The notes beneath the pieces were generated by a model that saw nothing but the letters and a program-made list of their open reading frames with translations, did not search any database and was not told the origin of the DNA. A DNA stretch of 64,000 bases, taken from NCBI GenBank assembly GCA_047602425.1, contig JASGHG010000001.1, forward strand, positions 2,496,001 through 2,560,000. Reading direction: 5' to 3'. A program made the translations under genes and the position numbers. Shown here piece after piece: positions 2,313 through 49,076 of this stretch. Position 1 is the stretch's first letter; each line of letters begins with the position of its first letter. The DNA is from Nibricoccus sp. (lineage in GTDB: Bacteria; Verrucomicrobiota; Verrucomicrobiia; Opitutales; Opitutaceae).

Positions 2313-2316
2313 CGGC

Positions 2317-3933: not shown

Positions 3934-3991
3934 GGGCAATGCGAAGATAGCTAGATTCCGGCCAATGTGCGACTTGGATGGATTTTTTTTC

Positions 3992-5182: not shown

Positions 5183-5221
5183 GTTTGGCGCGGTTGAATG
5201 GTTTTGGTTGGCGGACGGGAC

Positions 5222-5476
5222 TTACCCGGCCTTTTTCCTGGCCACGAAGGCGGCGGTGGCGCTGACCGACTTGAAGTTTTCGATTTCGAGATCGTCCATG
5301 CCGATTTCGATTTCGAAGGTGCGCTCGACGAAGGTCATCAATTGGACGGCGAAGAGCGAATTGACGATGCCGGTGTCGAAGAGATTTTCGTCATCACCCA
5401 AGGCGTCGATGTTGATCGAGCTGTTGATGAAATTGCGGACGGTTTCTTTGATGTGTTTCGGATCAAGGGTGCTCAT
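5222..5476 (-). CDS. Discrete acyl carrier protein (FkbJ/ZmaH-like)
   Basis: 84 aa and acidic; NLFDTGIVNSLFAVQL phosphopantetheine motif typical of extender-unit ACPs. Confidence 0.92.
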   Translation of the reverse strand: MSTLDPKHIKETVRNFINSSINIDALGDDENLFDTGIVNSLFAVQLMTFVERTFEIEIGMDDLEIENFKSVSATAAFVARKKAG

Positions 5477-5494
5477 GTTAGGTTTCGCGATAGG

Positions 5495-6361
5495 TTAGCC
5501 TTGTGAACCAGGGTAGACGTAGAACCCACGTCCGCTTTTGCGTCCGCAATGGCCGGCATCGACCATCTTCCGGAGGAGGGGGCAGCACCGGAATTTCGGA
5601 TCGTGGAATGAGTCGTAAAGCACGTCAAGCGACCGCATGACCGTGTCGAGGCCGATGAGATCGGCCGTTTCCAATGGTCCCATTTTATGGCCAAAGCATT
5701 TTTTGAAAATGGCATCGATCTGTGCGGCGGTGGCCAGTCCATCCTGGAAAACCCAGGCGGCCTCATTCATGAAAAGATGCGAAATCCGGTTGGAAACAAA
5801 ACCGGGCAAATCGCCCACCACGATGGCTTCCTTTTGCAGCTGCGAAAAGAGCTGGCTGACCACGGAGATGGTTTCGTCGGACGTGTGTTCGCCGCGGATG
5901 ACTTCGACGGTCGGCATCATGTGCACCGGATTCATGAAATGCATGCCGACGACCTTTTTCGGTCGTTGGGTAATGCCCGCAATTCGAGTGACGGAGATGC
6001 ACGAAGTATTTGCGCCAAAGCAAACGCCGGCCGGAACGATTTTGTCGATTTTCTCGTAGATCGGTTTTTTGACGGTCCAGTCCTCGGTCGCGTTCTCGAC
6101 GACAAACTCCGCCTTCGAAAGATCCTCGAGGCTGGTCGTAAACGTAATGCGGGACAACGTCTCGTCACGCGTGAGCTTGGGAGCGCCTTTCTTCAGCAGC
6201 GGAGCGAACCGGACCGTTTGCAGAATATGGGCGCGAGCCGATTCCAATGCCTTGTCGGATATGTCAACCGCGATGGCGTGAATGCCGTGCAGCACGAGGT
6301 CGACAACCACGCCGGAGCCGATGTTTCCCACGCCAATTACGCCGACGGTTTTCAAAGTCAT
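5495..6361 (-). CDS. 3-hydroxyacyl-CoA/ACP dehydrogenase (FkbK/ZmaG-like)
   Basis: GVIGVGNIG Rossmann motif, GMHFMNP, PGFVSNR and MGPLETADLIGLD. Confidence 0.93.
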   Translation of the reverse strand: MTLKTVGVIGVGNIGSGVVVDLVLHGIHAIAVDISDKALESARAHILQTVRFAPLLKKGAPKLTRDETLSRITFTTSLEDLSKAEFVVENATEDWTVKKPIYEKIDKIVPAGVCFGANTSCISVTRIAGITQRPKKVVGMHFMNPVHMMPTVEVIRGEHTSDETISVVSQLFSQLQKEAIVVGDLPGFVSNRISHLFMNEAAWVFQDGLATAAQIDAIFKKCFGHKMGPLETADLIGLDTVMRSLDVLYDSFHDPKFRCCPLLRKMVDAGHCGRKSGRGFYVYPGSQG

Positions 6362-6406
6362 GAGGGTGAAATTAGGACGATTGTTTGGTTTAGTAAAGCC
6401 GGGATC

Positions 6407-9400: not shown

Positions 9401-10294
9401 GGTTTTCGATGGTTCGGCGGGTTGTTCTGACCGGGTTTGCCCCAGATAGGTGAAATGCACGCCTGAAAGTTTCAGATGGCAGCGGCCATGGTCATCGAAG
9501 ACTTCAAGATCGCCGGAGTGCAGTTCGCCGACTGCTTTTCCCGACTGGCGGAGGCGCGCTCTAACCCACACGCTACCGCTAAAAGCGAGATCGAAGATTT
9601 CCAACTTCTCCATTCCCCGGAGAATGAATGTGCTGCCGCCAGCGATCGAAAATGAGGCCAGCAGCTGCGCGACGCCATCGAGCAAGATGGGATGCAACTG
9701 GTGGATTTGACCGGGTTTGGCGATCGGCATGGCGAGTTGGCCGAGAGCTTCAGGGCCGTTTCGCCAGACTTTTTGTACGATCTGAAATTCAGGACCGTAC
9801 TGATTTCCATTTTTCGCCAACTGCTCGTAGTAGCCGGTTTGATCGGTGTGGTATTCGGATTTTTCCGTCGGCGACGGTGCAGGGCATTGGCCTGACGGGG
9901 TAGGCCAACCGGTTATTACCTCTAAACGGGCGCAGGGAGGAGGAGTTGGTGAACTCGCATCGCCGCCTTCCCGAAACGTGTAGCGAAACGAATGTTCGGT
10001 CGTGCGTTCGATACTCGCCGTGAGCAGAGTCTCGGCATCGGAGAGGATGACGGGATTGAGGAATTCGATATGCGTCAGCCTGCTGGGCATGGTGCCGAAA
10101 TGCTCGGCATGAATGCAAAGCACGGCCTCGATATAGAAAGAGCCGGGCAGAACGACCAAGTTTTGGAAACCATGATCCGTCAGATAAGGAAACGAGGCAG
10201 TTGCGATCCGGACGGTTGCCGTGGCCCCACCGGCGTCGGCCGGTTCAAATGCCACTGCTCTGCTTATGGAAGAAAATGTACCGGGTGCCTTCAA
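6407..10294 (-). CDS. Multidomain PKS dehydratase - FkbM-type methyltransferase - FkbH glyceryl transferase/phosphatase - ACP protein
   Basis: DH: LTDHGFQNLVVLPG and HPILLDGVAQ. MT: VDIGANIGLFS and LLKIDAE. FkbH: VLDCDNTLW, FVDDNPVE, RTNQFN and LLSCRVLGRGVE. ACP: FFEAGGTSL. TTG start. Confidence 0.9.
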   Translation of the reverse strand: MKAPGTFSSISRAVAFEPADAGGATATVRIATASFPYLTDHGFQNLVVLPGSFYIEAVLCIHAEHFGTMPSRLTHIEFLNPVILSDAETLLTASIERTTEHSFRYTFREGGDASSPTPPPCARLEVITGWPTPSGQCPAPSPTEKSEYHTDQTGYYEQLAKNGNQYGPEFQIVQKVWRNGPEALGQLAMPIAKPGQIHQLHPILLDGVAQLLASFSIAGGSTFILRGMEKLEIFDLAFSGSVWVRARLRQSGKAVGELHSGDLEVFDDHGRCHLKLSGVHFTYLGQTRSEQPAEPSKTDLVVAATFTADPVEEVLTFWGFRLGRPLKTTFAPYNQVFQELLSPESALRRNQNGFNVILLNLNDWASGSESAASKLDPVTTTNAFAGLNRHTLANGLEVAHLNRHETEYVYKEIFEDRVYLRHGIQIPEDATVVDIGANIGLFSLFVRSRAPQARVFAYEPSPVAFKALQANCSAYGERLQPFNLGVSEKRGSASLTFYEKSSVFSSFHSNADEDRQAIQAVVANMVRTELGSSEPSTDVYVDELMTGRLDRQVFDCPLLSVSDIIRDNKLSRIDLLKIDAEKCELEILRGIEKTHWPLIGQIVIEVHDRTQKAVDEVRSILISQGFNCAVEEENLLTGSGLFNVYATRASRNETCATEAEPFAASKAEVKKTADQFIQALDAYTRSSSTPTILCFCPTNPLASGFSDSGQFLREIETELIDRVRGFSNIHTLSSTAIAERYPVTDLHDPHADAAGHVPYTAEGFASIGTALVRTISALQRSPYKVIVLDCDNTLWQGACGEEGALGVKVTVAHRALQEFMLRQMEAGMLLCLCSKNSEADVWSVFDRNPDMKLRREHLVATRINWSPKSENLRSLAQELGLGLDSFIFVDDNPVECAEVQASVPAVLTLPLPANPAEIPAFLDHTWAFDHLRTTSEDLTRTHRMRENAEREKYRDQVSTLKDFIEGLHLEISIFKPMAEHFDRVSQLTLRTNQFNFTTKRRSAADIERFSENPANGCLAVNVQDRFGDYGMVGLALFSIAGNVCSVDTFLLSCRVLGRGVEHGILARVGAEARARGCEFVELPFQTTEKNQPARDFVESLRAASAQEKSGSTIYRFSAEELISLRYKPSGSSETTESQSIANRPVSAKATHTRGFGAEARLVEIATTLDSVAKIRSAMETARLHASGFAEPAIGTDAAASLEDKLLSIWRRAIGNPHLKPTDNFFEAGGTSLKAVQVVAAIRRELKHQVSIVGLFESPTVRLLAEKLEPSKTEASAASDAMERGARRKQRLRKRD

Positions 10295-14939: not shown

Positions 14940-16268
14940 TTATTTGGAGGTTTTTAAAAGTTCGCTCGCCACGACCGCGGTTTTGACCGGGGCCGCGCTC
15001 TTGCGATCGAGTACGAGCGGGCGATAAAATTTGCGCTGCACGAGCCTGCGCAAGGTTCCGAGCACCGAGCGAATCTTGTCGCGCATTTCTATGCGCCACC
15101 AGCAGGCGAAAAGATGGTTGTTGCGAAACCGCGTGTACGGCAGGCCCAGCAGGCGAACCGAGAAACGACGACCCCACACGGCACCTTTCTTTTTCCAGAG
15201 GCCGGATTGGGATTTCTCCACTTTCCATGCTTCGGCTGGTTTTAGTTCAACGTAACCGTCGGCAATCGCGCCTTGGAGGATTTCACGGCCGCGCTGGGTC
15301 CGGACCAAAACCAAGGAGGAGCCAGGATTAACGCCATCCGGTTGGAAATACCAAGGATCGCCGCAACTGATATCGGCAAGTTCGCCGCTACTATCCGGCC
15401 AGAGCTGCACCGACCACGGACGTGACGCCTGAAGAATCGCCCAGCTTTCGCTATAGGTGAGTTTAAACGCAGGCTCGGATTGTCCCGGCATCATCGGTGC
15501 GAAATGACCGGGCCACCCCAGACCGCGATAGCGCAGGCTGGCGATAGAGGAGGGTTCGATGCCGCGTTCTTTCAACAGATTTGTCGTTGCCTTTGTCGGC
15601 GGACTGCCGGCGCAGAAAAACGACATGGTCACGCCGATCTTTTGGTCCAATTCCGGCTTGAGCCGGCGGGCATTCGTCAAAGCGGCGATTTCAGAAGGCT
15701 GACCGATGATGGCGCATGGCGCCGAGGCTTGCTCCACCAAGTTCAGGCCGTTGCACACGGAAGCGGGAGCATACCGGGAGCCGCTGGCGGCAATGAGATC
15801 CTGGCGATTCAAACTCAATCTCGTGCGGTTCAAAAAAGGCTCTTCCGGATCCTGACCGGTGTGCAGCACTCCGGCCATTCCTGCCTTTTCAACGCAGTAC
15901 GCGGCGAGGGCAGTGAGCACGCCGCCGGAAGAACCTTTATAACGTATTTCCGGATCTGCTGCGTGCCCTTCCCAAACTTCCAGAACCTGGCCCCAGTTTT
16001 GGGTGAAATCGGTCGCCGTCGCAGGAACGTCCTTGGGCTTGTCGTTCGCCGCTGGCGCGAACGGAGTGAAGTCGGTCTGTACGCTCGGGCAAGCGTCGAG
16101 GCAAAGCGTGCAATCCTTGCAATCGCTGGTGTCAACATTGGGACGGATTCCCTCGGCGACGTAGTCCAGGAGCTGAATGCGGTTTTCCGGACAGATGTAT
16201 GCGCACACACCACAACCAATGCACAACCTCCAATCAACAACGTCGGTAAGCGTTTTTATTTTGCCCAT
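14940..16268 (-). CDS. Coenzyme F420 hydrogenase beta-subunit (FrhB) family protein with 2x[4Fe-4S] N-terminus
   Basis: CIGCGVCAYICP and CKDCTLCLDACP; SSGGVLT, SGSRY, YRGLGWPG and ADISCGDPW. Confidence 0.88.
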   Translation of the reverse strand: MGKIKTLTDVVDWRLCIGCGVCAYICPENRIQLLDYVAEGIRPNVDTSDCKDCTLCLDACPSVQTDFTPFAPAANDKPKDVPATATDFTQNWGQVLEVWEGHAADPEIRYKGSSGGVLTALAAYCVEKAGMAGVLHTGQDPEEPFLNRTRLSLNRQDLIAASGSRYAPASVCNGLNLVEQASAPCAIIGQPSEIAALTNARRLKPELDQKIGVTMSFFCAGSPPTKATTNLLKERGIEPSSIASLRYRGLGWPGHFAPMMPGQSEPAFKLTYSESWAILQASRPWSVQLWPDSSGELADISCGDPWYFQPDGVNPGSSLVLVRTQRGREILQGAIADGYVELKPAEAWKVEKSQSGLWKKKGAVWGRRFSVRLLGLPYTRFRNNHLFACWWRIEMRDKIRSVLGTLRRLVQRKFYRPLVLDRKSAAPVKTAVVASELLKTSK

Positions 16269-16349
16269 TGAATATATGATGGTCGATGAATAATGCCGGC
16301 AGGTCGGCCCCGGATTATATAGAAATTATATGGTTTTGGCCGGATCCGT

Positions 16350-17627
16350 TTATGAAGAGGAAACCAAACGTTGGAATATATCTGCGAGTTTTCGGCGCGC
16401 GTCCTTGGAGGCTTCCGCGAGGCCGGCACGGGCCGCGGCGCGCAAACGATAAAGTTCGACGGCACGCGTCACCGCCGAAGCGTTGTCGCTGCTTCGACCA
16501 TCGATGACCCAGTCCTGCATTCCGACACTTTCGAAAACCCCCGCGAACTTCATGCTGTACGCGACTCCGATGCAAGGAACGCCCTGCGAGAGCGCGGCGA
16601 TGCAAGCATGCATGCGTGAGCCGATGAAAAAATCGCAGCGCCCGATGATGCCCTTGATCGCATATTGATCGTACTCGCGGTCGACGATCCTGATTCGCTG
16701 CCGCAATGCGGCGGGTACTGCGTCGCGCAATTTCCGCGATGCTTCCTGATCGCTTTCCACGTCGCCCGCCGGAGCGAAGGTATGCGGAACCAGCCAGAGT
16801 TCTCCGGGATGCTCGTTCAACAACCGTGTCACCAATTCGGGAAGAAACTCCGCGTAGCTCAGCTTGAGTCCGAACATATTATTGCGTGTGTAACCGCCGT
16901 TATACATCAGGCCGTTGACATTCAGGCCAATCACGCCCGCCGGAACGCTGCCGGCGAGGGGAGGATCGAGAGCAATTTCGGACGTCGGAACGGCTTCAAG
17001 CGAAAAGGCCACGTCTGGACTGAGCAGAACTTCTTTCCCGGGGCCCACGAGATTTTGCGCGACGACGCGGCTTTGTTTGTCGCGCGCAATCACCACAGAG
17101 GACCGCCTGAGCAGATAGCGCGCGAGCCCGCGCGCGACCGCGCTTTTGAACGGGCCGTAGGTTTGCGGAAACTGCACCATCGTGCCTTTGACCAACAAAA
17201 CCGACCAGTCCAAAAGGAAGGTATAAATAAATCCTTTTAACCCATAGATATCGCTAAAACTATCGCCGCCGTGGACGTTGCCGACTAGTTTGGCATCGAC
17301 AATCGTTTTGATCCACGGCGTGGAGCGGGCAATGGCGGCCCGGACGGCTTTTAGGGGAGCCAGTCGATAGAGCATCGACATCCCAAGGATCCAGAAAAGG
17401 TGATCGCGCGGCCGGGCTCGGGGGGACATGCGGACATTGACGACTTCAATCGGCGTTTCCTTGCCGCCTACACGAAAAGTCGCCGGCCGGTTGTCCTGGT
17501 TGCCCAAGAGCAGGGCAATATGGCACCCCGGAGCCGCTTCGGCGCAGAGGTTGACCAGGGAAGCGCCCAGCGCCAGAACGCCGCGGTTTCCGGATGAAAC
17601 CGGCGTGCCTAGAATTCCGATCTTCAT
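16350..17627 (-). CDS. Polysaccharide pyruvyl transferase (WcaK-like) family
   Basis: GNRGV, GGDSFSDIYG, PQTYGPF, ARD, PDVAF, GSRMHACIAALS and YSMKF. Confidence 0.9.
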   Translation of the reverse strand: MKIGILGTPVSSGNRGVLALGASLVNLCAEAAPGCHIALLLGNQDNRPATFRVGGKETPIEVVNVRMSPRARPRDHLFWILGMSMLYRLAPLKAVRAAIARSTPWIKTIVDAKLVGNVHGGDSFSDIYGLKGFIYTFLLDWSVLLVKGTMVQFPQTYGPFKSAVARGLARYLLRRSSVVIARDKQSRVVAQNLVGPGKEVLLSPDVAFSLEAVPTSEIALDPPLAGSVPAGVIGLNVNGLMYNGGYTRNNMFGLKLSYAEFLPELVTRLLNEHPGELWLVPHTFAPAGDVESDQEASRKLRDAVPAALRQRIRIVDREYDQYAIKGIIGRCDFFIGSRMHACIAALSQGVPCIGVAYSMKFAGVFESVGMQDWVIDGRSSDNASAVTRAVELYRLRAAARAGLAEASKDARRKLADIFQRLVSSS

Positions 17628-17673: not shown

Positions 17674-18351
17674 TCAATGTTTCCAAAATATTCCTTCCTT
17701 GATCACTCGTATGTTGGGGCTTCCGCCGATGACCGCGTGGGACACGTCGACGCGCCCGGCCACGGTGGTTCCGGCCGCCACGACCACACCCTCTTTTATT
17801 TTGGATCCTTTTAATATAAGCGTCCGGCAGCAGAGCCAGACGTTGTCGCCGATAATAATTGGTTTTGGCGGATTCAAAACGGTTCCCTGCGCATCACAAA
17901 TATCGTGCCAGTCCTGGTCGAAAACCGAGACATCCCAGGAAATCAAAACGTTTCGCCCGAAGGAAATCTTTGTTTTCGCGTAGATCATGCTGAAACCGGT
18001 GACCGCGAAATTGTTTCCAACGAATAGTTCGCCATGCGCGGCGATCTGGCAGCCTGGCCCAATGTCGGCGGTTCCTTCAAAAATGACCTTACCGGTTATG
18101 ATCAATATGGACTTCGATTTGGCATTGTGAAAAAGCGGGCCGTCTCCCATTCCGATTTTCACGATGCCCGTCCTGATCCGCTGCAATTCCACCGTGCCGG
18201 AGAGTTCCTTTAGCTGCACGCGATGGGAGACAAAAACCGGGAGTTTCAGCGCGGTGCGGAAAGGAAAATAGCGCAGGTTGAAATGAACGGTGTTCGGGAT
18301 CGAAAGGAGGAAATCCCATTTCCTCAAAATACTCCGAAGGGCATTTTTCAT
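17674..18351 (-). CDS. Hexapeptide-repeat (left-handed beta-helix) acyltransferase
   Basis: ISFGRNVLISWD, DQDWH, IIIGDNVWLC, ILKGSKI and VIGGSP. Confidence 0.88.
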   Translation of the reverse strand: MKNALRSILRKWDFLLSIPNTVHFNLRYFPFRTALKLPVFVSHRVQLKELSGTVELQRIRTGIVKIGMGDGPLFHNAKSKSILIITGKVIFEGTADIGPGCQIAAHGELFVGNNFAVTGFSMIYAKTKISFGRNVLISWDVSVFDQDWHDICDAQGTVLNPPKPIIIGDNVWLCCRTLILKGSKIKEGVVVAAGTTVAGRVDVSHAVIGGSPNIRVIKEGIFWKH

Positions 18352-18447: not shown

Positions 18448-21400
18448 TTAGCGAATCTTGTCTCCTTCCAGCGGTTGCGCAAACTGGTCCTTCACATTGT
18501 TGAGATTTTCCAACGAGGCGTTCCACCATTTCGATGCCAGCAAGGTTTCGATCGTCTTCGGGTTGAAGCGGTATCGCAGGACCTTGGCCGGGTAACCACC
18601 GACAATGGCATAGGGAGGCACATCTTCCACAATAACGCTCCCGGCGGCGATGAAAGCTCCGTCCCCGATCTTTTTTGTAGGATAGAGGATGGTTGCGTTA
18701 TTTCCGATAAACACGTCGTTGCCAATTTCCACTTTCACCCGGTTGAGTTCGTAGCCTTTGGCGAAGCCGAAGGCGGGATGGTAGAAAATCGCGTTGGTCG
18801 AGATGGTGTTTCTGGGGTGGTCGGCATTTTGGATGAACGCCGTGGGAGACACCGATGAATATCTGCCGATCGTCGTCTTCTCGCGCATCCGGTCAACGTC
18901 GAAGCATCCGCAAGTGTAATCGCCAATCTGGATGCCGAACATTTTGGCGTAAAGCTTCCGCAAGGTTACCGTGTAGTATTCGCCATTCTCGAATTTGAGG
19001 ATCAATTTTTGGGCGAACGCGCGAACGCGGCGGCTTCCGTTCATGAACAGCGGGGCCAGGACCCATCGGCAGAACGCGGACTCTTTCATCCGGGAGCCGG
19101 CTGTCGGCCCTGTTTGCGATGTAGTTGTTTTTTGGAGACCGAGCAGCGTTGCGACAATTTCCGGATTGGCCTCGGGCAGGTTTAGGCTCGGAGCTGGGCT
19201 TGGTGCCGCGGGCTTGTCGATGACATGCGCGGATTGGCCGGACGTCGACGGCAGTAGAGTCGCGAGGCCTGCCACCGTTCGATGCCGGAAAAGCGCCACG
19301 GGCGGAAGATCGGTTCCGAAGCGATCGTTGAGGAGCGAAACGGCCCGCAATACCAGCAACGAGTGACCGCCCAAATCGAAGAAATCGTCGTGAATGCTGA
19401 TGCGTTCAACACCCAATACTTCCCTCCAAACCTGACAGACACCTTGTTCGGTTTCGTTTCTTGGGGCGACATAGGTGGTTCCGAGGTCCGGACGGTCCTG
19501 CACGGGCTTCGGAAGGGCCTTGCGGTCGACTTTTCCATTGGTAGTCAGAGGAATTTTTTCGAGCTGCACGAAGGCGGCCGGCACCATGTACTCCGGCATT
19601 TTTTTCTTCAGGTGTTCCCGAAGCTCCAGAACCGAGGGGATCACGCCGCCTGACGAAATGACGTACGCAACCAATCGCTGGTCGCCGGGAACATCTTCGC
19701 GCGCGATGACGACCGCTTCGCGAATCGCAGGATGCTGACAGAGAACGGACTCAATTTCACCCAGTTCGACGCGGAAGCCGCGGATTTTTACCTGTTGATC
19801 GATACGGCCGAGATACTCGATGTCGCGGCCGGGAAGGAAGCGAGCGAGATCGCCCGTTCGATAAAGTCGCGAACCGGGTTTGTTCGTGAGATGATCGGGA
19901 ATGAATCGGGCGTCGGTGAGGTCCTGCCGATTGAGGTAACCGCGCGCAAGGCCGGCACCGCCGACGTACATTTCTCCCGGAACACCGATGGGCAACGGCT
20001 GTTTTTGCGGATCGAGGATATATACTTGAAGATCCGGAATCGGCACGCCGATCACACTGCCAGAGGTCAAATCGTCTTTCGACAACGGCCTGTACGTGAC
20101 ATGCACCGTCGTTTCGGTGATGCCATACATATTGACCAAACGCGGCTGGCTGTCGCCATGCCGGTCGTACCACGGGCGCAAACTTTGCATTTCCAAAGCC
20201 TCTCCCCCGAAAACCACATAACGCAGCGCCAGTTTCTTCTGCCCGACCGATTCCTCCGCATGGATGAGCTGGCGGAATGCCGATGGCGTTTGGTTCAGGA
20301 CGGTCACCTGTTCCTTGGCGAGGAGTTCGTAGAATGCCTCGGAGGAGCGGCTGACCATGAATGGCACCACAACAAGGCGGCCGCCGTAGAGCAAGGCGCC
20401 CCAGATTTCCCAAACGGAGAAATCGAAAGCCACGGAGTGGAACAGCGTCCATACGTCCGAACTATTGAACCCGTACCAATGATCGGTGGCGGAGAAGAGC
20501 CGCGTCACGTTCCGGTGGGTGAGCAGGGAACCCTTGGGTTTTCCCGTCGTGCCCGAGGTGTAAATAACGTAGGCAAGATGATCCGGATTTGTCGCGGACG
20601 GCTGGTTTTCGTTGTCGGCGTCGGTCAGTTTTTCCTGGAGCAGCTGGTCTACGCAGAGCACACGGGCGGATGTTTCGGGAAGATCCTTGAGCAGGGACGA
20701 CTGCGTGAGCAGAATGGGAGCCTTGGCATCGGAAAGCATGAACGCCAGTCGATCGGCCGGGTAGGCAAGATCGATCGGCAGGTAGGCGCCTCCCGCTTTC
20801 AAGATGGCGAGCAGGCCGATCACGAGGTTGTTGCACCGTTCAAGACACAGACCGACGAGGACATCGGGGCCGACGCCCAGTGAACGCAACTCGCGGGCGA
20901 GTCGGTTGGCCATGGCGTTGAGTTGGCGGTAGCTAAGGGTTTGGTCATCGCAGGTCAGCGCGGGCGCGTCCGGGCTCCGGCGGGCCTGCTCCTCAAAAAG
21001 GACATGGATGCAACGGTCGCTGGGATAGTCTTTTGGTGCTTCGTTCCAGTCGACCACGAGCTGCTTCCGTTCCGCGGCGGTGACGAGCGGTAGGACACCC
21101 AATTGTTTTTCCGGTCCGGCGAGCATTCCGGCGAAAATGATTTCGAGGTGCCCAAGCATTCTGCCGATGGTTCCTTCGTCATACAGACCGCCATTGTATT
21201 CGAGGCGCAGCAGCAGTTGGTTTTCGCCATAAGCCTGGAGGACGAGCGGTATGCCGACCTGTTCCTTTAGTTCTATCTGGAGTTTAGGTCCATTCGGATT
21301 CAGTTGCTGGACCGCGGTATCAAGCTGTGCATGATCGAACATCAACAGGGTGTCGAACAGCGCCTTCCGGTCTTGAATTTCGCTCCATTGCTGGATCTTG

Positions 21401-22413
21401 ACCAAAGGCGTGTGCTCGTGCTTTCGAAGTTCGAATTCGCGCGCGCGCAGGTCTTTCAACCAGGATTTTAAGGTGGCGCTGGACGAAACATTAACACGAA
21501 GCGGGAGCGTGTTTATAAAAATGCCGACAATGGAATCGGCATCGGTCACGGTGGACCGCCGGCAGGCCCGGGTGATTCCGAAAACGACGTCTTCTTCGCC
21601 ACTATAGCGGCTGATGAGCAAGGCCCAGGCCGCTTGTACGAGCGTGCCGAGGGTGACCCCTTGGGCTGCGGCAAAGGCCTTCAGTTCGGTCGTCAACGAT
21701 TCTGACAGGCGCGTCTCGCTCGCGGCTGGAATAAACTCGTTACTGGCTGCTGCCGGACGCAGCGTGCGCAGATCGGTGGGGACGGAGAATCCTTTTAGTT
21801 CCGCCCGCCAGAATCCTTCCGAGGCCTGCCAGTCATGGCGTCCAACCCATTCAATATATTCACGGAATGGGCGCGGAGCAGGCAGTTGAATATTTTCGTT
21901 CCGGAGCCCGGCTTTATAAAGCGTGAATACTTCATTCAGAATAATGGGGTAGGCACGTCCATCCAAAATAATATGATGAAAACTCCATATACATTTGTAA
22001 CGGTTTTCACCAAGTCGCGCGAGGGTCACTCGCATTACGGGCGCTTGGGAAAGATCGAAGCCCTGTTTGCGGTCGGTGCGGAGAAATTGTTCCAGTTCTT
22101 TGGTCTGCGCCTCTGGCGCCAGATGAATCCAGTTACGTTCGACGAAAGGCAGCGTCACTGTGGGGTGAACATCCTGGGCTGGTTCAGCCAGCTTCAGCCA
22201 ACGAAACGCTGTGCGTAAAGCTCCATGACGGACGACTACTTTTTCCCACGCCGCTTTGAAGGCCGCTGTGTTTACGGCTTCATCGATGGTTATAACGACC
22301 TGCTCAATGTTTATTCCTGAGTTGGGGCGGGACACGGTGTCAAAGAGCATGCCTTGCTGCATTGACGAAAGAGCGTAGGATTCCGCAATCGAAGTCGTGG
22401 GCGTGGATGTCAT
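18448..22413 (-). CDS. Single-module NRPS: C - A(Thr) - T - CatB/Vat-like LbH acyltransferase
   Basis: C: HHIILDG. A: YTSGTTGKPKG with pocket DFWNVGMVHK. T: FFDLGGHSLL. C-terminus: DHPRNTISTN...IGNDVFIG...IGDGAFIAAGS...DVPPYAIVGGYPAKVLRYRF...KWWN. No TE or R domain. Confidence 0.93.
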   Translation of the reverse strand: MTSTPTTSIAESYALSSMQQGMLFDTVSRPNSGINIEQVVITIDEAVNTAAFKAAWEKVVVRHGALRTAFRWLKLAEPAQDVHPTVTLPFVERNWIHLAPEAQTKELEQFLRTDRKQGFDLSQAPVMRVTLARLGENRYKCIWSFHHIILDGRAYPIILNEVFTLYKAGLRNENIQLPAPRPFREYIEWVGRHDWQASEGFWRAELKGFSVPTDLRTLRPAAASNEFIPAASETRLSESLTTELKAFAAAQGVTLGTLVQAAWALLISRYSGEEDVVFGITRACRRSTVTDADSIVGIFINTLPLRVNVSSSATLKSWLKDLRAREFELRKHEHTPLVKIQQWSEIQDRKALFDTLLMFDHAQLDTAVQQLNPNGPKLQIELKEQVGIPLVLQAYGENQLLLRLEYNGGLYDEGTIGRMLGHLEIIFAGMLAGPEKQLGVLPLVTAAERKQLVVDWNEAPKDYPSDRCIHVLFEEQARRSPDAPALTCDDQTLSYRQLNAMANRLARELRSLGVGPDVLVGLCLERCNNLVIGLLAILKAGGAYLPIDLAYPADRLAFMLSDAKAPILLTQSSLLKDLPETSARVLCVDQLLQEKLTDADNENQPSATNPDHLAYVIYTSGTTGKPKGSLLTHRNVTRLFSATDHWYGFNSSDVWTLFHSVAFDFSVWEIWGALLYGGRLVVVPFMVSRSSEAFYELLAKEQVTVLNQTPSAFRQLIHAEESVGQKKLALRYVVFGGEALEMQSLRPWYDRHGDSQPRLVNMYGITETTVHVTYRPLSKDDLTSGSVIGVPIPDLQVYILDPQKQPLPIGVPGEMYVGGAGLARGYLNRQDLTDARFIPDHLTNKPGSRLYRTGDLARFLPGRDIEYLGRIDQQVKIRGFRVELGEIESVLCQHPAIREAVVIAREDVPGDQRLVAYVISSGGVIPSVLELREHLKKKMPEYMVPAAFVQLEKIPLTTNGKVDRKALPKPVQDRPDLGTTYVAPRNETEQGVCQVWREVLGVERISIHDDFFDLGGHSLLVLRAVSLLNDRFGTDLPPVALFRHRTVAGLATLLPSTSGQSAHVIDKPAAPSPAPSLNLPEANPEIVATLLGLQKTTTSQTGPTAGSRMKESAFCRWVLAPLFMNGSRRVRAFAQKLILKFENGEYYTVTLRKLYAKMFGIQIGDYTCGCFDVDRMREKTTIGRYSSVSPTAFIQNADHPRNTISTNAIFYHPAFGFAKGYELNRVKVEIGNDVFIGNNATILYPTKKIGDGAFIAAGSVIVEDVPPYAIVGGYPAKVLRYRFNPKTIETLLASKWWNASLENLNNVKDQFAQPLEGDKIR

Positions 22414-22609: not shown

Positions 22610-24061
22610 TTATAGAGCTGCCGTCTTGGTTGCTAGGCGAGGCATAATGGCATTATAAATAACTTGGGCAACTTCAGGAAATATTATCCGTGCGATGCCC
22701 ACCGCGATGCCGAGTGAAGCGAGTGCGCTGACGGCGGCGCCCACGATGCCCAGGCTGGATGCAAAATAATGGGCATAACCAACGTTCAAGACTAAAATTC
22801 CCACCAGGTAAACGGTGGCGACGGAACTTTCGCGCAGGGGCACTTGTTGCTTTTGGCGGAGTCGATACAAGGAATACACTGTGGCCAAAATCTCGCCCAC
22901 AATGGCGCAAGCTGCGATTTGAGTGGGAGTCCCTTTGAGCGCGACGACGGCCAAGGCGATTGGCAGTCCGGCTGCTCGCCACAAGTTCGAATAAAATTGG
23001 TTGATCGTATCGGCACGCGCCGCGGCCGCGTTGCCCGAGGCCAGACGCAGGAAGCGGAAAGCCATCGCCGAGCCCAAAATCGCGACGAACGCCCCGGTGC
23101 CCACGTATTTTCCGCCGAAGATCAACGTGACGAGTTGTTCACCCGCGACAATCATCGGCACAAGAAATAGGCCCGCGCAGACCGCGGCAATTTGTATACA
23201 CAAACGATATTGATGTTTCAACCGCTCCAAGTCGTCTTGCAGTCTCGATAAGAGCGGCAGCATCAAAGAGCCGCTCACCTGGGAAAAGATAAACCACGGA
23301 ATACTAATCATCGAAAACGCCAGGCCGTAGCTGGCAAGCAAGTCGAGCGAGAAGACCGAACCTATAATAATCTGATCGGCTTGTTGTGAGCCGAATGTTA
23401 TAAAGCCGGTCAGCAGGAGGGGCCACCCGAACGCCAGCATACTTTTAATGTAATCGCGCTGCCAGGCCCACACATAGGGTCGGGTTGCGCAAAGAAAGGT
23501 GATGATCGTGCCGGTGGCGGCCTTCGTGAGCATGAGAATTACAATCACACGAAAATCTCCCAACCAGTGCGCCAAGGGCCAGGCGGCCGCCGTAATCAAC
23601 AATTGGGGAACGACGTCGGATAAGATCAACGGCAGATATTCGAGATGACGCTGACGCCGCGACACATCCATGTGGCCCAATCCTTGGCACATGGGCACCG
23701 AGGCCAGAAGGGCAAACGCCCACCAAGTGCCGGGCACTCCGAGAAATTTTGCGATGGGATAACTCAAGGCCACGAGCATCAATGCACTGCACGAGCCACC
23801 GATAAATTGGAGCGCCTGCGCGGTGCCGAGAAACGCCGGTTCTTCACCTTTCTTGGACTGCACGACTTGCAGCCCAAAACACATATTCCCGCTTAACTCG
23901 AGGAGGGTGATGGCCATGCTAAATGCCGCTGCCAAACCGAAGTCCGCTTTGCCCAAGGTTCTGGCTAAAATCACATTGCGCACGAACGAGAGAAAATATC
24001 CTGCAATTCGCCCGGTGAGCAGAATCATTGTGCCTTGGAGCAGTGAGTTCGATTTGCGCAT
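22610..24061 (-). CDS. wzx: Wzx-type oligosaccharide flippase
   Basis: Highly hydrophobic, 483 aa, N-terminal ILARTLGKADFG, located in a polysaccharide locus. Confidence 0.88.
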   Translation of the reverse strand: MRKSNSLLQGTMILLTGRIAGYFLSFVRNVILARTLGKADFGLAAAFSMAITLLELSGNMCFGLQVVQSKKGEEPAFLGTAQALQFIGGSCSALMLVALSYPIAKFLGVPGTWWAFALLASVPMCQGLGHMDVSRRQRHLEYLPLILSDVVPQLLITAAAWPLAHWLGDFRVIVILMLTKAATGTIITFLCATRPYVWAWQRDYIKSMLAFGWPLLLTGFITFGSQQADQIIIGSVFSLDLLASYGLAFSMISIPWFIFSQVSGSLMLPLLSRLQDDLERLKHQYRLCIQIAAVCAGLFLVPMIVAGEQLVTLIFGGKYVGTGAFVAILGSAMAFRFLRLASGNAAAARADTINQFYSNLWRAAGLPIALAVVALKGTPTQIAACAIVGEILATVYSLYRLRQKQQVPLRESSVATVYLVGILVLNVGYAHYFASSLGIVGAAVSALASLGIAVGIARIIFPEVAQVIYNAIMPRLATKTAAL

Positions 24062-26047: not shown

Positions 26048-27022
26048 CTAAACAAATTTCTGTAAATACGGGATCTTTTGGATCACAGCCACGGCGAGAA
26101 AAGACACGACGGTCGTCAATGCGAACCAGACCAGATCATGTTGATGTATCCAAGGGATCAATTTGAAGGCAGCCATCACCACGCCGTGAATGAGATAAAC
26201 GCCCAAGCACAGGGTGCTAATTGGGCCGATTTGAGGGGAAAGCTGGCGTTTGAACAACAGCCCGACCACGACAAGCGCGCTTCCGACTCCGTACGAAATT
26301 CCCATGCCGGGATCGATGTGATGAAGGTAGGCGCAGGTGATTATTATCGTCGCTTCGATGGCGATCAAAACGCGGTTGGATTGCGCACCCAGAGTCACCG
26401 CGGAGGCCATGGCCAAACCAATCGGAAGGCTGGGCGCGGCCTGTAACCACTGGGCCCAAGGCGCTTCATAGAAGCCCGACGTGCGGATGAAAGCCGCTGC
26501 GAAAAGCGTGAGATGCGCGACGATAACCGGAACGGCAACCCGTGTGTACGGCGGCAGTTTGTCGTGCGGCTTGCTCAGAACGTAGGTGACGCAGGCGCTC
26601 GCAAACGAAAAGGGTAGATACCATAATCCAATCCACGGTCCGGCTAGAATGTTATCGATAAAGCCGGATGTTAGCGGAAACAAACGTTTACCCGTCACTA
26701 TATTGAGCACGGCGTAGATAACAAACCACGCGGCCCAAGGCATCAGCAGGCGCGAAACTCTTTTCTGAAAAAACGCCTTCGGATTAAGGCCCTGAGTGGA
26801 TCCTTTTTGAAAGAAAACGAATATAATCAGGAAAAATACAAGGCCCGCATAGGCAACTCGTCGTTGCGGAAGGACGCCGAGATGAAACCAAATGACTGCG
26901 CAGGCCGAAATGATCCGAAGCAGATCGATGGTATCGTTTCGTTCCTTCACGCGTGCTGGTTTATCGTGCGTGGCAACCGACATGGCGGCGGTCGAGAAAA
27001 GATGAGGCTGGGAGGTCGACAT
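26048..27022 (-). CDS. Membrane-bound acyltransferase family 3 (OafA-like)
   Basis: RNDTIDLLRIISACAVIWFH, KRVSRLLMP, LWYLP and GVYLIH; about 10 TM segments. Confidence 0.88.
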   Translation of the reverse strand: MSTSQPHLFSTAAMSVATHDKPARVKERNDTIDLLRIISACAVIWFHLGVLPQRRVAYAGLVFFLIIFVFFQKGSTQGLNPKAFFQKRVSRLLMPWAAWFVIYAVLNIVTGKRLFPLTSGFIDNILAGPWIGLWYLPFSFASACVTYVLSKPHDKLPPYTRVAVPVIVAHLTLFAAAFIRTSGFYEAPWAQWLQAAPSLPIGLAMASAVTLGAQSNRVLIAIEATIIITCAYLHHIDPGMGISYGVGSALVVVGLLFKRQLSPQIGPISTLCLGVYLIHGVVMAAFKLIPWIHQHDLVWFALTTVVSFLAVAVIQKIPYLQKFV

Positions 27023-27042: not shown

Positions 27043-28434
27043 TTAGGCCGAACCGGCTTTTGTGATTTCAGGATTTTGGTCCTGTGCGTCAGGTTGCTTC
27101 CCATCCGGACCGTCGCTTTGCGGGGAGGCAAGCTCCGTGACTGCGGAGTCGGCTTCAACATCCGCGTCTTCCGATTCAACGAGCGTGGCCGGGGCCATTT
27201 TGGCCGACGAGTAAAGCGAGCCGATCATCGCGAGGTTCGAAAACAAAAACACGAACGACTGGTCAAAATAATAGACCGACATGCAGGAACAGGCTTGGGC
27301 GAAGAGCGCTGCACCGAGCGTCCAGATGTGGAATTGTTCCGAAAGCGGCGCATTTTCGTCCAAGCGTATGGTTTTCCCCACGTAGTTGAATGCCGTTCCC
27401 AAGGCGAAAATGAAAAGGAGCATCAAGGGGAAACCGCCAAAAACACCGTAACCAATATATTGGTTCGTTATGTCGCAATGATCCTCGCTCCACGATACGC
27501 CATATGGCATCCAGTGCCGGGTGTACGCAGTTCCCGCGAACCACCATTCACTAAAATGGTTGATGGCCGCCTGGATCAGGGCGGCCCGGTGATATCCCGT
27601 GCTGCTTCCGGTAAGATCGATCCGGGCGATCAAATAATAGGCGGGCGCCTGCATGCACACGTCTAAAACAATATAGAACACCACCGCCGCGATCCGCATC
27701 TGGCGGGTAAACGCGCGCCATTTCCAAAGCATCAAACCGAACAATCCGAAAACCACGCTCATCAGCGGGCCGCTGGATCTGCTCGCCAGCACCATCAGCA
27801 GACAGGCGACAATGCCGACCTTGGCCGCCAGGCGTTGCGTTTTCCAAATGCCCACCATCAAGGGCAGAACCGCGGCGCCCACCGTTCCGGCGAGGATTGA
27901 ATGGGAAAATGGACCCTGTGCGCGGATACTGCCTTCACGGACGGAGGCCATTTCGGGAACGTCGCCGAAAATGGCGAACATGTTGCGACCGGTTAATTTT
28001 TCACCGACCATTTCAAGGGCAACCGGGAGAAGCACGAAGGCGGTGATCTTCGAATAAAAAATGATATCGTCGATATTCTGACAGAAGATGCGGATCAGAA
28101 AATATATCCCCAAGGTATTGTAGACGGTGCCAAGCTGGCTGGTGAGGGGCTGGACAAAAATACTGCTGAACAGACACCAAAAAGCCCAAGCCAGCATGAA
28201 CCAATCCAAGCCATTGAACCCGCCCGCAGGACGTTCGTTGCGAATGATGACACGAGCGAAACCAAATAAAAGGAGCAAACGGATGATAGGGAAATGAAGC
28301 GGGCCGACCTCGATTCCTTGTCCCAAGGTCATGTAGCAGGCGCCCGCAAGCAACGGCAGCGGAGCCCAGCGCCGCGGTACCGACAAAAGCGCTGCGGCGT
28401 TGATCAAAAGAAAAATGAAAGCGAAACCATTCAT
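27043..28434 (-). CDS. O-antigen ligase/Wzy polymerase family membrane protein
   Basis: Multi-TM; RAQGPFSHSILAG, SRSSG and periplasmic loop STGYHRAAL...DITNQY. ATG at 28434, with an alternative TTG at 28476. Confidence 0.78.
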   Translation of the reverse strand: MNGFAFIFLLINAAALLSVPRRWAPLPLLAGACYMTLGQGIEVGPLHFPIIRLLLLFGFARVIIRNERPAGGFNGLDWFMLAWAFWCLFSSIFVQPLTSQLGTVYNTLGIYFLIRIFCQNIDDIIFYSKITAFVLLPVALEMVGEKLTGRNMFAIFGDVPEMASVREGSIRAQGPFSHSILAGTVGAAVLPLMVGIWKTQRLAAKVGIVACLLMVLASRSSGPLMSVVFGLFGLMLWKWRAFTRQMRIAAVVFYIVLDVCMQAPAYYLIARIDLTGSSTGYHRAALIQAAINHFSEWWFAGTAYTRHWMPYGVSWSEDHCDITNQYIGYGVFGGFPLMLLFIFALGTAFNYVGKTIRLDENAPLSEQFHIWTLGAALFAQACSCMSVYYFDQSFVFLFSNLAMIGSLYSSAKMAPATLVESEDADVEADSAVTELASPQSDGPDGKQPDAQDQNPEITKAGSA

Positions 28435-28537
28435 TCCAGCGTGGCTCCACGGCAGATTTGCAGGGAGCTTGGGCAATACGATATCACATTTGCGCGAACC
28501 GACGACTGGTAAACGAAGATCGTTGTGCCGGCCGGAA

Positions 28538-29731
28538 TCATTGTTTTTGGCTCCCGTTTTCCTGCTTCAAGACGGTCACGGCTGTGTCCGCCAAATAGCT
28601 GATGTGGCGATCGTCCAGTCCTTGATGAACAGGCAGTGTGAGGAGTTGTTGTTTCAGCCGGCAGGCATCGGGAAACGACGACCAATCGATGCCATTGCGA
28701 TGGAACCCCGCCCACCAAGGATAGGCCGCGATACCTCTTGCTTGCAGCGCTTCCACGCTGGCGTCGCGGTTGGCTACGGTGAGTGGAAACGACAGCGGAC
28801 AAACGCTATCCGGCAAAGTTCGATAAACGGGCGTCATTCCTTCAATTCCGGAAAAGGCCTTGCTTAGTTGAAGAAAATTGGAGCGGCGCCGGCGGACGAT
28901 TTCCTGCGGCGAGAACGAACTGGCCAAGGCAAAGGTCGCGGGTTGTATCGCGCGGTCGGCATGGATTCCCGGATCGAAGTAGTAGGACTCGGGCATTTCA
29001 GGCCGAGCGGTTTCGGGCTCCTGTCCATTTCGGCCATTGCGTCGATTTAGGCTCGAAAGAAGCGATCCATACAAACCGAACCATTCTAAAGAATCGAGAA
29101 TTGCCGTCTTTGTGGAAGATTTGATCTCGGTTAACAGGCTGGAAAGCCCTGCCGGGGTCAGACGAGGATTGCGATCGACGCGGGTTCTTGGAAGTGAGAG
29201 CAGACCGCCGTGCGCGAAGCCCAGGGTTTTGGGCAGGCTGTAAATTGCGGCGTCGCCCATCCGTCCGATCCTGTTCGATTCGCCATTGCTGAAGAGTGCG
29301 AGGGCGCAGTCCTCGATGAGAAGCAACCCCTGTTCGTCGCACCAACGTCGCAGGTCGGACATCGGCTGTTCCCAACCAAAATAGTGAATGATATATACAG
29401 CGCGAGTGTTGGGAGTTTTTCGAGATATGAGATCGGCAAAATCGATCCGGCAGTCGGCTGAGACGGAATAGCCCTTGAGTTTTGCGCCAGCATGGACAAG
29501 GGCGTCGAGTTCGGTTCCGCAATTGTAGGCCGGCACCAATATTTCCGAACCAGGTGGCAGGCCTAGTAGTTTGCAGGCGAGGGCGATGGCTGAACGCCCG
29601 CTGTAGGTGCCAATCAAATAGCGGTCGCGAAACTGATCGTGTTGCAGAACAGCGTGACGGGACGGTTGGAGTGCACGAAACCAGTGGTGCAGACTGACTG
29701 ACGGAGCGCCGCAATGAAGTGCGTTTTTCAC
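28538..29731 (-). CDS. DegT/DnrJ-like PLP-dependent aminotransferase
   Basis: SGRSAI, VPAYNC, IHYFG, IEDCA, YSLPK (PLP Lys) and LPVHQ. GTG at 29731 overlaps the upstream stop (GTGA). Confidence 0.85.
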   Translation of the reverse strand: MKNALHCGAPSVSLHHWFRALQPSRHAVLQHDQFRDRYLIGTYSGRSAIALACKLLGLPPGSEILVPAYNCGTELDALVHAGAKLKGYSVSADCRIDFADLISRKTPNTRAVYIIHYFGWEQPMSDLRRWCDEQGLLLIEDCALALFSNGESNRIGRMGDAAIYSLPKTLGFAHGGLLSLPRTRVDRNPRLTPAGLSSLLTEIKSSTKTAILDSLEWFGLYGSLLSSLNRRNGRNGQEPETARPEMPESYYFDPGIHADRAIQPATFALASSFSPQEIVRRRRSNFLQLSKAFSGIEGMTPVYRTLPDSVCPLSFPLTVANRDASVEALQARGIAAYPWWAGFHRNGIDWSSFPDACRLKQQLLTLPVHQGLDDRHISYLADTAVTVLKQENGSQKQ

Positions 29732-30969
29732 AGCGTGTGTCGGATCCAGAAGGACCACAGCGTGTGCTGCAGCGCAGGAATTTTGGGCGCGAGGCGAACG
29801 AAGAGCACTTTGTAGTAGGCGAAGTCGAGAAACGAGGAAAACGCCTTGTAGAGGCGAACCCGCGCGCGTACTCCGAAGCCGCGCCGAATAAACTGCACCG
29901 TACGCAACGGCCACTCATGGGCTCCATGGTGAACTTTATATCCGTAATGACCACGGCCTCCCTCGATCGTGTTGAGACCTTCTCCAATCGCGGCCTCGAT
30001 CATTTTCACCAAGCCCATCGTGCCCAAACTGAAACGATCCCACTCGGCGTTTCGCACACGCGCCGGCAACCGCCAATAGACAGTGCGCCCATGCACGAAA
30101 CAATATTGGGAGGAAATAACCTTCTCGTCAGCGAGGATGCGATAAAAGCGGACTTTACCCTGACTGCCGAAGGCTCGAATGAGTTCCCGGTTGAATTCGT
30201 GGGCGTGTGGCCAATCGCCGAAGTGGCCGAGTTTTCCGTCTGCACGCCACTGGTGTTCGTGCTCGCGGCAAAAATTCTCGAATTCGGTGGCGATCGTTTC
30301 CGGCGCGCCGACCGAGTCGAAGCTGACGCGGTGCGCTTTCGCGCTTTGCTCGATCATCCGCTTGAAATTGCTCCGCTGTTTCTTGTCCAAATTTTTGAGA
30401 TAATCGGCGAAATTATCCGGGAGCGCGAAAATGCTGTTGCAGGTGTCGCCCACAGCTTCCGTTTCGCCGACCAAGGTTGGATTTTGGAGGCCGGCCGCCT
30501 GCAAATCTTCTATGTGGGCGCCCGAGCCCGCGAGCGGGCCGAAGAGAAGAACGTCGCAGCGTTGCTTGCCAACGAAGTATTGCACGCTCTGGCTGGCCAC
30601 CGCTTTGACGAAATCCGGTAGCACGGGTAGATTGCAAAGAGTTAGGCTATAGTCCGCGCCGACCAATTTGGCGGCGCGAATCCAGACTGGCCCCAGCCAA
30701 AGCGTTTCGATAAAAGCGGGGACGATGCCGACCAAGTCTTCACCGGCATAGAAAAACAGAAGATGGAGGGAACGCTTGGTTCCGTAATATTTCCACCAAA
30801 TACTGCACCACTCAAAGGTTTGATACACGTCCGCGCCGGAGCGGGCGACGAGATCGTTCCACGCGGTGCGGTGCGGTTCTGCCTCGGAGAAGGAGTGCAG
30901 AAGTCGTACGGAAAGCTGTTTTTCCGGGGAAAGCAGGTGGGTGGTCTCGGTGGAATCCATGGATTTCAT
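29728..30969 (-). CDS. GNAT acyltransferase, CelD/BcsL-like
   Basis: YQTFEWCSIWW, YLKNLDKKQRSNFKR, FSLGTM and GGRGHYGYK. ATG at 30969 overlaps the GT2 stop (ATGA). Confidence 0.85.
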   Translation of the reverse strand: MKSMDSTETTHLLSPEKQLSVRLLHSFSEAEPHRTAWNDLVARSGADVYQTFEWCSIWWKYYGTKRSLHLLFFYAGEDLVGIVPAFIETLWLGPVWIRAAKLVGADYSLTLCNLPVLPDFVKAVASQSVQYFVGKQRCDVLLFGPLAGSGAHIEDLQAAGLQNPTLVGETEAVGDTCNSIFALPDNFADYLKNLDKKQRSNFKRMIEQSAKAHRVSFDSVGAPETIATEFENFCREHEHQWRADGKLGHFGDWPHAHEFNRELIRAFGSQGKVRFYRILADEKVISSQYCFVHGRTVYWRLPARVRNAEWDRFSLGTMGLVKMIEAAIGEGLNTIEGGRGHYGYKVHHGAHEWPLRTVQFIRRGFGVRARVRLYKAFSSFLDFAYYKVLFVRLAPKIPALQHTLWSFWIRHTL

Positions 30970-46883: not shown

Positions 46884-46924
46884 GTATGACAGGTGTGCGG
46901 GCGGGGCAGGGAACTCTCTGAATC

Positions 46925-49036: not shown

Positions 49037-49076
49037 TGGATGTTCCAAATGGTTTCGGAATGTCGCCTCTGCGGCT

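Follow-up and report, generated by a model that had tools for sequence, protein, structure and literature searches.

LpxA and LpxD are trimeric left-handed beta-helix (LbH) enzymes, which transfer an acyl group from the pantetheine of an acyl carrier protein (ACP) onto a nucleotide sugar. Pls and PosA resemble nonribosomal peptide synthetases (NRPSs) without a thioesterase (TE), and models of the terminus show three left-handed beta-helices packed together, which would work on the amino acid bound to the carrier (T) domain (PMC10522769). Thus, LbH-type offloading from a carrier has a precedent. In Karenia brevis, an LbH domain lies beside carrier domains in three polyketide synthases (PKSs), either at the C-terminus or close to it (PMC5725682). 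The Dlt system (DltA, DltC, DltB, DltX and DltD) performs adenylation, forms a carrier thioester and transfers the amino acid to a surface polymer (PMC13721041). Here we describe an NRPS gene in a 64,000-nucleotide stretch of Nibricoccus DNA (the window), whose product ends in an LbH domain in place of a TE. We favour, with a probability of about 0.6, the reading that this domain would be a trimeric release domain, which moves the carrier-bound acyl group (acyl-Thr) onto a cytoplasmic polysaccharide precursor, more likely onto a hydroxyl group than onto an amino group.

The gene is a single intact open reading frame. The condensation (C), adenylation (A) and T domains are followed by a linker and the LbH domain.

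18448–22413, minus strand: NRPS gene, C-A-T-linker-LbH, 1321 aa, from the open reading frame and Pfam.
21055–22383, minus strand: C domain, DCL-like, HHIILDG at aa 146–152, without an N-terminal docking extension.
19531–20997, minus strand: A domain (aa 473–961), pocket DFWNVGMVHK.
19252–19443, minus strand: T domain, GGHS with Ser1018.
19090–19251, minus strand: linker of about 54 aa, rich in Pro, Ala and Ser, varying among homologues.
18451–19089, minus strand: terminal LbH acyltransferase domain of predicted xenobiotic acyltransferase (XAT) type, aa 1109–1321, with three N-terminal helices and His1199, modelled as a homotrimer.

According to Pfam, Condensation is matched at aa 11–453 (E = 7e-85), AMP-binding at 473–827, AMP-binding_C at 886–961, PP-binding at 991–1054 and Hexapep at 1228–1261. 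No TE, terminal reductase or terminal C domain was matched by Pfam on the 1321-aa protein, and the LbH domain occupies that place. With an intact HHxxxDG motif and the carrier Ser, the module is canonical up to the T domain. The DHP His of the LbH domain is His1199. The pocket letters D-F-W-N-V-G-M-V-H-K were read directly from the sequence. We take this pocket to be the Thr code, and Thr is the predicted substrate of the A domain. In a comparison with PDB proteins, the C domain matched McyB C1 best (360 bits), followed by PvdL, SrfA-C, TycB and bacitracin synthase 3 (208–313 bits), and the matches to TycC (123 bits) and CDA C1 (22 bits) were weaker. With the DCL, LCL and starter labels that we assume for these references, the C domain appears DCL-like by similarity rank, not by tree. 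Only three condensation-family (PF00668) matches are present in the genome. All of them lie in C-A-T modules of the window locus, and none is epimerase-like. Therefore, the donor for the DCL-like C domain would have to come in trans, and the same genome-wide search ruled out an NRPS ending in T and epimerization domains elsewhere in the genome as that donor. An assembly chimera as the source of the fusion was also rejected, because independent proteins share the architecture and a 272-nt contig from another sequencing run bridges the linker–LbH junction with 8 differences and 0 gaps.

The last 250 aa match the models of Vat (E = 3e-25), CatB (1e-23) and ApmA (2e-22). The scores of 55–89 bits are far below the curated cut-offs of 300–550 for these families, and the gene was therefore rejected as an antibiotic-resistance gene of the Vat, CatB or ApmA type; no sign of a resistance role was seen in these comparisons. 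Among PDB structures, VatA/VatD, ApmA and CatB match best in both sequence and fold. All the listed top Foldseek matches of the model are XATs, with identities of 26–36% in the fold matches. The short left-handed beta-helix, the inserted loop and the C-terminal helices with a WW motif, which mark the XATs, are present. His1199 aligns with ApmA His135, and the H135A chain has Ala at that position. ApmA His135 is equated with the catalytic His of Vat and CatB; this His is essential for O-acetylating XATs and dispensable for apramycin N-acetylation by ApmA, the pantetheine tunnel of XATs lies between the chains, and ApmA was solved with acetyl-CoA (PMC7885111).

In the monomer model (pLDDT 78), the domain consists of three N-terminal helices, the beta-helix and the C-terminal helices, and the His loop (insert 90–114) is of low confidence and not resolved. 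The homotrimer model scored 0.76 against 0.00 for the best control, with runs agreeing in at least 94% of the contacts and a pLDDT of at least 88 (89 in the model). Of the solved pairs, 20 of 30 attained the mark for this score, as did 1 of 23 single chains, and the pass may reflect likeness to solved XAT trimers. In the trimer model, the His loop becomes ordered against the neighbouring subunit, as in XATs. The N-terminal helices are basic and hydrophobic and lie outside the modelled interface; they could bind the membrane.

The residues of 63 fused LbH sequences (near-duplicates included) were compared with those of 212 stand-alone sequences shorter than 320 aa, excluding 14 probable fragments and a few longer fusions. 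The catalytic His is present in 63/63 of the fused and in 203/212 of the stand-alone sequences. In the acetyl-CoA site of CatB, Ser139, Thr144 and Lys162 are the hydrogen-bonding positions and Lys145 is part of the site, and CatB7 of P. aeruginosa has Gly at the Lys145 position (PMC8096840). By spacing, Ser139, Thr144, Lys145 and Lys162 were assigned to positions 149, 154, 155 and 172 of the LbH domain. Lys or Arg occupies position 155 in at most two of the 63 fused sequences, against 154 of the 212 stand-alone ones, and position 169 in 28/63 against 203/212. Position 172 is basic in 62 of the 63 fused sequences. The window domain has Val-Glu at the Thr144/Lys145 positions and Arg at the Lys162 position. 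This pattern may point, weakly, to looser contacts with the nucleotide part of CoA, while the path for pantetheine is retained.

A protein search with the terminal region, limited to proteins of 726–2312 aa, gave 30 matches including the query, and a carrier domain (PP-binding) precedes the C-terminal LbH domain in all 30. A profile from 17 LbH domains was searched over 1.84 billion representatives. The LbH match ends no more than 4 residues from the C-terminus in each of the 31 proteins scoring at least 246 bits, and a carrier domain lies ahead of it in 30 of them; the exception, P0040 (292 aa), may be a fragment. Below these 31 proteins, one fragment, one more C-A-T-LbH protein and mostly stand-alone proteins of about 200–300 aa were found. 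No TE family was reported in the carrier-LbH proteins of the length-limited search or of the top profile matches. A search among short proteins gave about 15 close matches, mainly on short contigs, and several have a carrier domain; after these came stand-alone sister proteins at about 39–49% identity.

Ten architectures end in the LbH domain. With methyltransferase (MT), ketosynthase (KS), acyltransferase (AT), ketoreductase (KR), dehydratase (DH) and aminotransferase (AMT) domains, they are A-T, C-A-T, TubC_N-C-A-T, TubC_N-C-T, A-MT-T, C-A-T fused to a glycosyltransferase of family GT2, A-T-C-A-T, KS-AT-ACP, KS-AT-KR-DH-ACP and KS-AT-ACP-AMT-C-A-T. The A pockets differ among the members, also within the C-A-T group. 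The protein P0168 is KS-AT-ACP-AMT-C-A-T with the LbH domain, whereas a protein of a same-genus genome (G1377) has the same domains without LbH and feeds a C-A-T-TE protein. It looks as if LbH and TE were alternative line ends. A stand-alone sister group of uncharacterised CatB-related proteins shows 34–49% identity to the LbH domain.

The named family members belong to Ketobacter, Microbulbifer (including M. aggregans and M. hainanensis) and Nibricoccus. No fused LbH was found in 400 other genomes of the window's own order or in 400 others of its phylum (the samples overlap), and one was found in 401 genomes sampled from the order of genome G401. None was found in 250 genomes sampled from the family of genome G404, though a named member exists in a Nibricoccus genome. 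The 79 loci listed in a full-domain GTDB scan contain no fused member (they are generic CatB-like, with best-segment identities of 34–45%), which is no measure of absence. The carrier-fused family is rare, not absent. It is real and coherent, and a variant of known chemistry. Other fusions link the LbH group to glycan enzymes: GT2 with a partial C-A-T-LbH, flippase-LbH, GT28-LbH and LbH-GT2 (P0014, P0257, P0224 and P0283). The ESM Atlas contains clusters of small two-domain carrier-LbH proteins of about 314–334 aa from Planctomycetota and Pseudomonadota, with scores of 0.86–0.87, and all the ESM Atlas matches scored below 0.9.

The NRPS gene lies in a Wzx/Wzy polysaccharide cluster with the genes on one strand. 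The cluster begins with an RfaH-like regulator, a priming transferase, a dehydrogenase/aminotransferase/LbH set, Wzc, deacetylases and glycosyltransferases. It continues with two GNAT/FemAB proteins, Wzy, Acyl_transf_3, the flippase, the NRPS and a second small LbH protein, and then with a pyruvyl-transferase-like protein, an FrhB-like protein, a nucleotide-sugar dehydrogenase and GT4. Further downstream are DH-FkbM-FkbH-ACP, a dehydrogenase/ACP/dehydrogenase/A cassette, a KS-AT-KR-ACP PKS, a C-A-T-C-A-T-TE NRPS, and finally a set of AMP ligase, ACP, NAD synthase and Asn synthase with an exosortase.

22610–24061, minus strand: Wzx-type flippase, the next gene upstream of the NRPS; its subfamily recurs in homologous loci.
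17674–18351, minus strand: small separate LbH acetyltransferase (WbbJ/WcaF/MAT-like), the next gene downstream of the NRPS.
16350–17627, minus strand: polysaccharide pyruvyl transferase-like protein, recurring in homologous loci.
14940–16268, minus strand: FrhB-like 4Fe-4S protein, recurring in homologous loci.
27043–28476, minus strand: Wzy-like polymerase.
26048–27022, minus strand: Acyl_transf_3 membrane acyltransferase, a rival release route.
6407–10294, minus strand: DH-FkbM-FkbH-ACP loading protein, a candidate acyl donor.
5222–5476, minus strand: stand-alone ACP of 84 aa, flanked by a 3-hydroxyacyl dehydrogenase and an acyl-CoA dehydrogenase, a candidate donor.
1149–2375, minus strand: N-terminal part of the KS-AT-KR-ACP PKS, frameshifted near 1514 and extending past the window start.

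Two observations lie outside these genes. Upstream of the polysaccharide locus (window 44673–55314), there is a run of membrane-plus-TPR genes with strong GC skew, three of them with PMT_2 matches. At window 28538–29914, a second, divergent DegT-family protein lies beside a GNAT gene, and its family match is limited to the N-terminal part.

A metagenome scan gave 144 pattern matches, from which nine loci were confirmed. Polysaccharide genes lie beside the LbH-ended gene in 7/9; the other two, L087 and L091, have too little flank, and none of the nine shows a clearly non-glycan setting. The order in L083 is that of the window (flippase, A-T-LbH, pyruvyl-transferase-like and FrhB, with identities of 58, 66 and 70%), without the C domain. 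In L088, L089 and L090, a flippase of the window subfamily (32–36%) occurs with glycosyltransferases. The next gene in L084 is a weak Wzy_C match, L086 has a Wzz-like gene, and L085 has GT4 at the contig edge and two LbH-ended lines. In the genome G990, two LbH-ended lines (A-T-C-A-T-LbH and KS-AT-ACP-LbH) are located at the ends of two contigs, apparently joined via one split gene; the genes around them encode a flippase, FrhB, Wzy, Wzz, glycosyltransferases and an exosortase. G990 also keeps stand-alone sister LbH genes, one of them directly after the flippase; the stand-alone copy has Thr-Arg. These results indicate that the fused copies are more than a substitute for that acetyltransferase. 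The stand-alone sister lies near the same flippase type in L006 as well as in G990, and the window NRPS and the L083 gene are directly after the flippase. In the same-genus genome G1377, the syntenic locus has a stand-alone sister LbH, no fused LbH, and a different PKS/NRPS line at the equivalent place. This line (L102:337–15657) consists of A-T, KS-AT-ACP-AMT-C-A-T, A-T-TE with a degenerate C domain, and Acyl_transf_3; its TE and Acyl_transf_3 suggest a second route to glycan decoration.

Several features recur in these loci. The pyruvyl-transferase-like gene, mostly with the FrhB-like 4Fe-4S gene, and one flippase subfamily occur together with or without an NRPS (window 14940–17627 and 22610–24061, L006, L083, L089, L090 and L094). 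A CheR-like methyltransferase gene lies directly 5' of the A-T-C-A-T-LbH type (L085:1391–2197, L088:3481–4521, L089:3829–4797, L090:3846–4652 and L095:4178–5143). The C domain of this type has NHIIYDN in place of HHxxxDG in L087 and L089. L088 (1–3366) and L089 (1–3623) each have two flippases, and only the NRPS-adjacent one resembles the window flippase.

A preliminary description of the gene, made from the DNA letters, agrees with these results in every point that it had observed. It had described the C-A-T module with a linker and an LbH domain of about 200 aa that keeps the DHP His and lacks a TE, which the open reading frame, Pfam, the fold matches and the alignment of His1199 bear out, as well as the pocket, the DCL-like C domain (confirmed by the rank of McyB C1), the neighbouring flippase, which is the next gene upstream, and the need for a donor in trans. 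It had named an architecture search as a check, which found the carrier-adjacent terminal domain throughout the long proteins and in 30/31 top profile matches, and homologues outside glycan loci as counter-evidence; seven metagenome loci and G990 are glycan loci, and two loci are too short to tell.

Four observations argue most strongly for the favoured release reading: the domain is always terminal, it recurs on both NRPS and PKS lines that lack a TE, its His is invariant, and fused and stand-alone copies coexist. In the proposed mechanism, the A domain would activate Thr and load the pantetheine on Ser1018. The C domain would couple Thr to an acyl group, probably D-configured at C2, supplied in trans on another carrier of the locus. 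Then the T domain would swing on the linker into the tunnel between the subunits of the LbH homotrimer, where it would replace CoA, and the acceptor would be deprotonated by His1199. The acceptor may be a cytoplasmic precursor of the Wzx/Wzy exopolysaccharide (the lipid-linked repeat unit more probably than a nucleotide sugar), which would be acylated before flipping, more probably on a hydroxyl than on an amino group. The hydroxyl acceptor is preferred because no sugar aminotransferase was seen among the genes scanned in the homologous loci; the window locus itself has two. An ester linkage is slightly favoured over an amide, because O-acetylation requires the His and N-acetylation by ApmA does not. 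The domain probably originated from a stand-alone polysaccharide acetyltransferase, fused behind a carrier and portable as a terminus afterwards. The wider proposal has about an even chance, namely that soluble, homotrimeric LbH domains form a new class of release domain in NRPSs and PKSs, which would esterify any line product, be it an amino acid, a dipeptide, an acyl-peptide or a polyketide, onto the exopolysaccharide repeat unit before flipping. The release activity, donor and acceptor are predicted from architecture and context.

Several points weigh against release by the LbH domain. The profile was built from fused members, so that their top rank arises partly by construction, although 21 of the 31 (P0151–P0171) were first found there. 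The loci do not count as independent, since L084, L087, L088 and L089 seem to be close relatives, as do L085 and G990, and the seven glycan loci of the nine metagenome loci represent perhaps four or five independent lineages. Stand-alone sisters also occur in glycan loci (L006, G990 and G1377), so context by itself cannot separate transfer from acetylation. Thr144 is retained in 11/63 of the fused sequences but also in just 89/212 of the stand-alone ones. ApmA reads Leu-Glu at the Thr-Lys positions (154–155) and yet uses acetyl-CoA; with the Gly of CatB7, this makes the residue change in the fused domains compatible with CoA use. In addition, Acyl_transf_3, two GNAT/FemAB proteins and a TE-ended NRPS are present in the window locus, and any of them could unload a carrier. 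The LbH domain might still be an acetyl-CoA acetyltransferase, acting on the glycan or, as an embedded tailoring domain, on the carrier-bound amino acid, while Acyl_transf_3, GNAT/FemAB, an amidotransferase or a TE unloads the line. Acetyl-CoA is the donor for all the nearest characterised relatives, the Leu/Val-Glu change also occurs in ApmA, the fused domains retain the Lys162 position, and Acyl_transf_3 is present in the window locus, G990 and G1377. Acyl-alanyl amino sugars, including N-acetyl-alanyl sugars, are known in polysaccharides (PMC8074265). We consider this reading unlikely all the same, since the domain is last and never internal in the 30 carrier-fused top matches. It also terminates KS-AT-ACP and KS-AT-KR-DH-ACP lines, and the keto or enoyl products expected of these would offer no new hydroxyl or amino group for acetylation. 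Moreover, G990 has kept a stand-alone copy (Thr-Arg) in addition to its two fused domains.

If the domain does release the chain, the acceptor could instead be water, a small amine or alcohol, a lipid or a surface protein, the genes merely lying in a variable surface island. Different PKS/NRPS lines fill the same stretch of the locus within the genus, the scanned genes of L085 include just one glycosyltransferase at the edge, exosortase genes occur in the window locus and G990, and the modelled terminus of Pls/PosA uses an amino-acid acceptor. The position of the window and L083 genes directly after the flippase, where L006 and G990 have the stand-alone sister, the fusion of the homologue P0014 to a GT2 domain and the lack of a clearly non-glycan setting in all nine metagenome loci make such an acceptor improbable. 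Very improbable is a non-catalytic domain that only trimerises the synthetase or tethers it at the membrane near the flippase. The confidently predicted trimer interface, which leaves the basic hydrophobic N-terminal helices outside, would suit this role, whereas the catalytic His is kept more strictly in the fused than in the stand-alone sequences.

For the donor, the preliminary description had proposed a D-glycerate- or PKS-derived acyl group, and this was not established. The FkbH/PKS/NRPS line 8–30 kb downstream ends in its own TE, its KS is frameshifted in the assembly, and G1377 has a different line there without a fused LbH. The frame change near window 1514, in the KS of the PKS at G000:C1:2493659–2498375, is either a real break or an assembly error. 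This second, TE-ended line (window 2317–10294 and G000:C1:2486237–2497447) consists of DH-FkbM-FkbH-ACP, a Ser-type A/ACP/two-dehydrogenase cassette, the PKS and an NRPS of C-A(Ser-type)-T-C-A(Gly-type)-T-TE; together with the C-A-T-LbH protein, it accounts for all the NRPS modules detected in the genome. The cassette presumably resembles an aminomalonyl-ACP supply. The same description had suggested NDP-amino sugars as acceptors for an assay; an amino-sugar acceptor is not favoured over a hydroxyl group. Its overall interpretation is supported for the architecture, the terminal role, the glycan setting and the trans donor, but not for the donor identity, the amino-sugar acceptor or the absence of precedent; to call the release mechanism undescribed was too strong in view of the Pls/PosA and Karenia brevis reports above.

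Release domains determine the product of an assembly line, and few types are known. If the favoured release reading is correct, a 213-aa domain ending ten NRPS/PKS architectures would be a portable means of attaching peptides or polyketides to sugars, and the whole synthetase would be a trimer. Scattered Verrucomicrobia-like bacteria, Gammaproteobacteria and other bacteria would then decorate surface polysaccharides with swappable line products. The results also suggest that some 'orphan' NRPS/PKS genes in polysaccharide loci may make no free metabolite. To our knowledge, the enzymes for aminoacyl and acyl-aminoacyl groups on bacterial polysaccharides are often unassigned, and the family offers a testable route to such groups. 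It also gives a clue to the natural function of CatB-like proteins, which is called elusive (PMC8096840).

No account of a soluble XAT-type LbH domain ending an NRPS or PKS in a glycan locus was found in the open literature searched, which excludes most subscription journals, and the family points to a possible, undescribed route by which amino acids, short peptides or polyketides could be linked to surface polysaccharides. The fold, the His-bearing inserted loop and the C-terminal helices with the WW motif are common to the window domain and Vat, CatB and ApmA, and a trimer like theirs is predicted by the model. Unlike these enzymes, the window domain lies behind a carrier, has three N-terminal helices and is encoded in a polysaccharide locus. 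The stand-alone CatB-related sisters share the N-terminal helices, the His and the locus type, whereas they have no carrier and mostly keep the basic residues of the CoA site. LpxA and LpxD are stand-alone enzymes of another LbH class, with fatty acyl donors and outside assembly lines. The PKSs of Karenia brevis are eukaryotic, two of them also have a TE, and their LbH domains were noted without a function; they are likened here by description only. Pls/PosA have three LbH in one chain and six membrane helices, polymerise one amino acid and start with A-T without a C domain. The window protein has one XAT-type LbH in a 213-aa terminal domain and a C domain, and some homologues are A-T-LbH. Membership of the Pls family was rejected, as TIGR02353, which describes the terminal domain of about 700 aa, gave no match at the window gene at E ≤ 1; in the ESM Atlas, Pls/PosA clusters are among the neighbours of the T-LbH part, with scores of 0.80–0.81, as a lead only. 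In the case of Dlt, separate proteins with a membrane relay act outside the cytoplasm on one D-Ala and without LbH, whereas the A-T-LbH members would be a one-protein analogue of that system.

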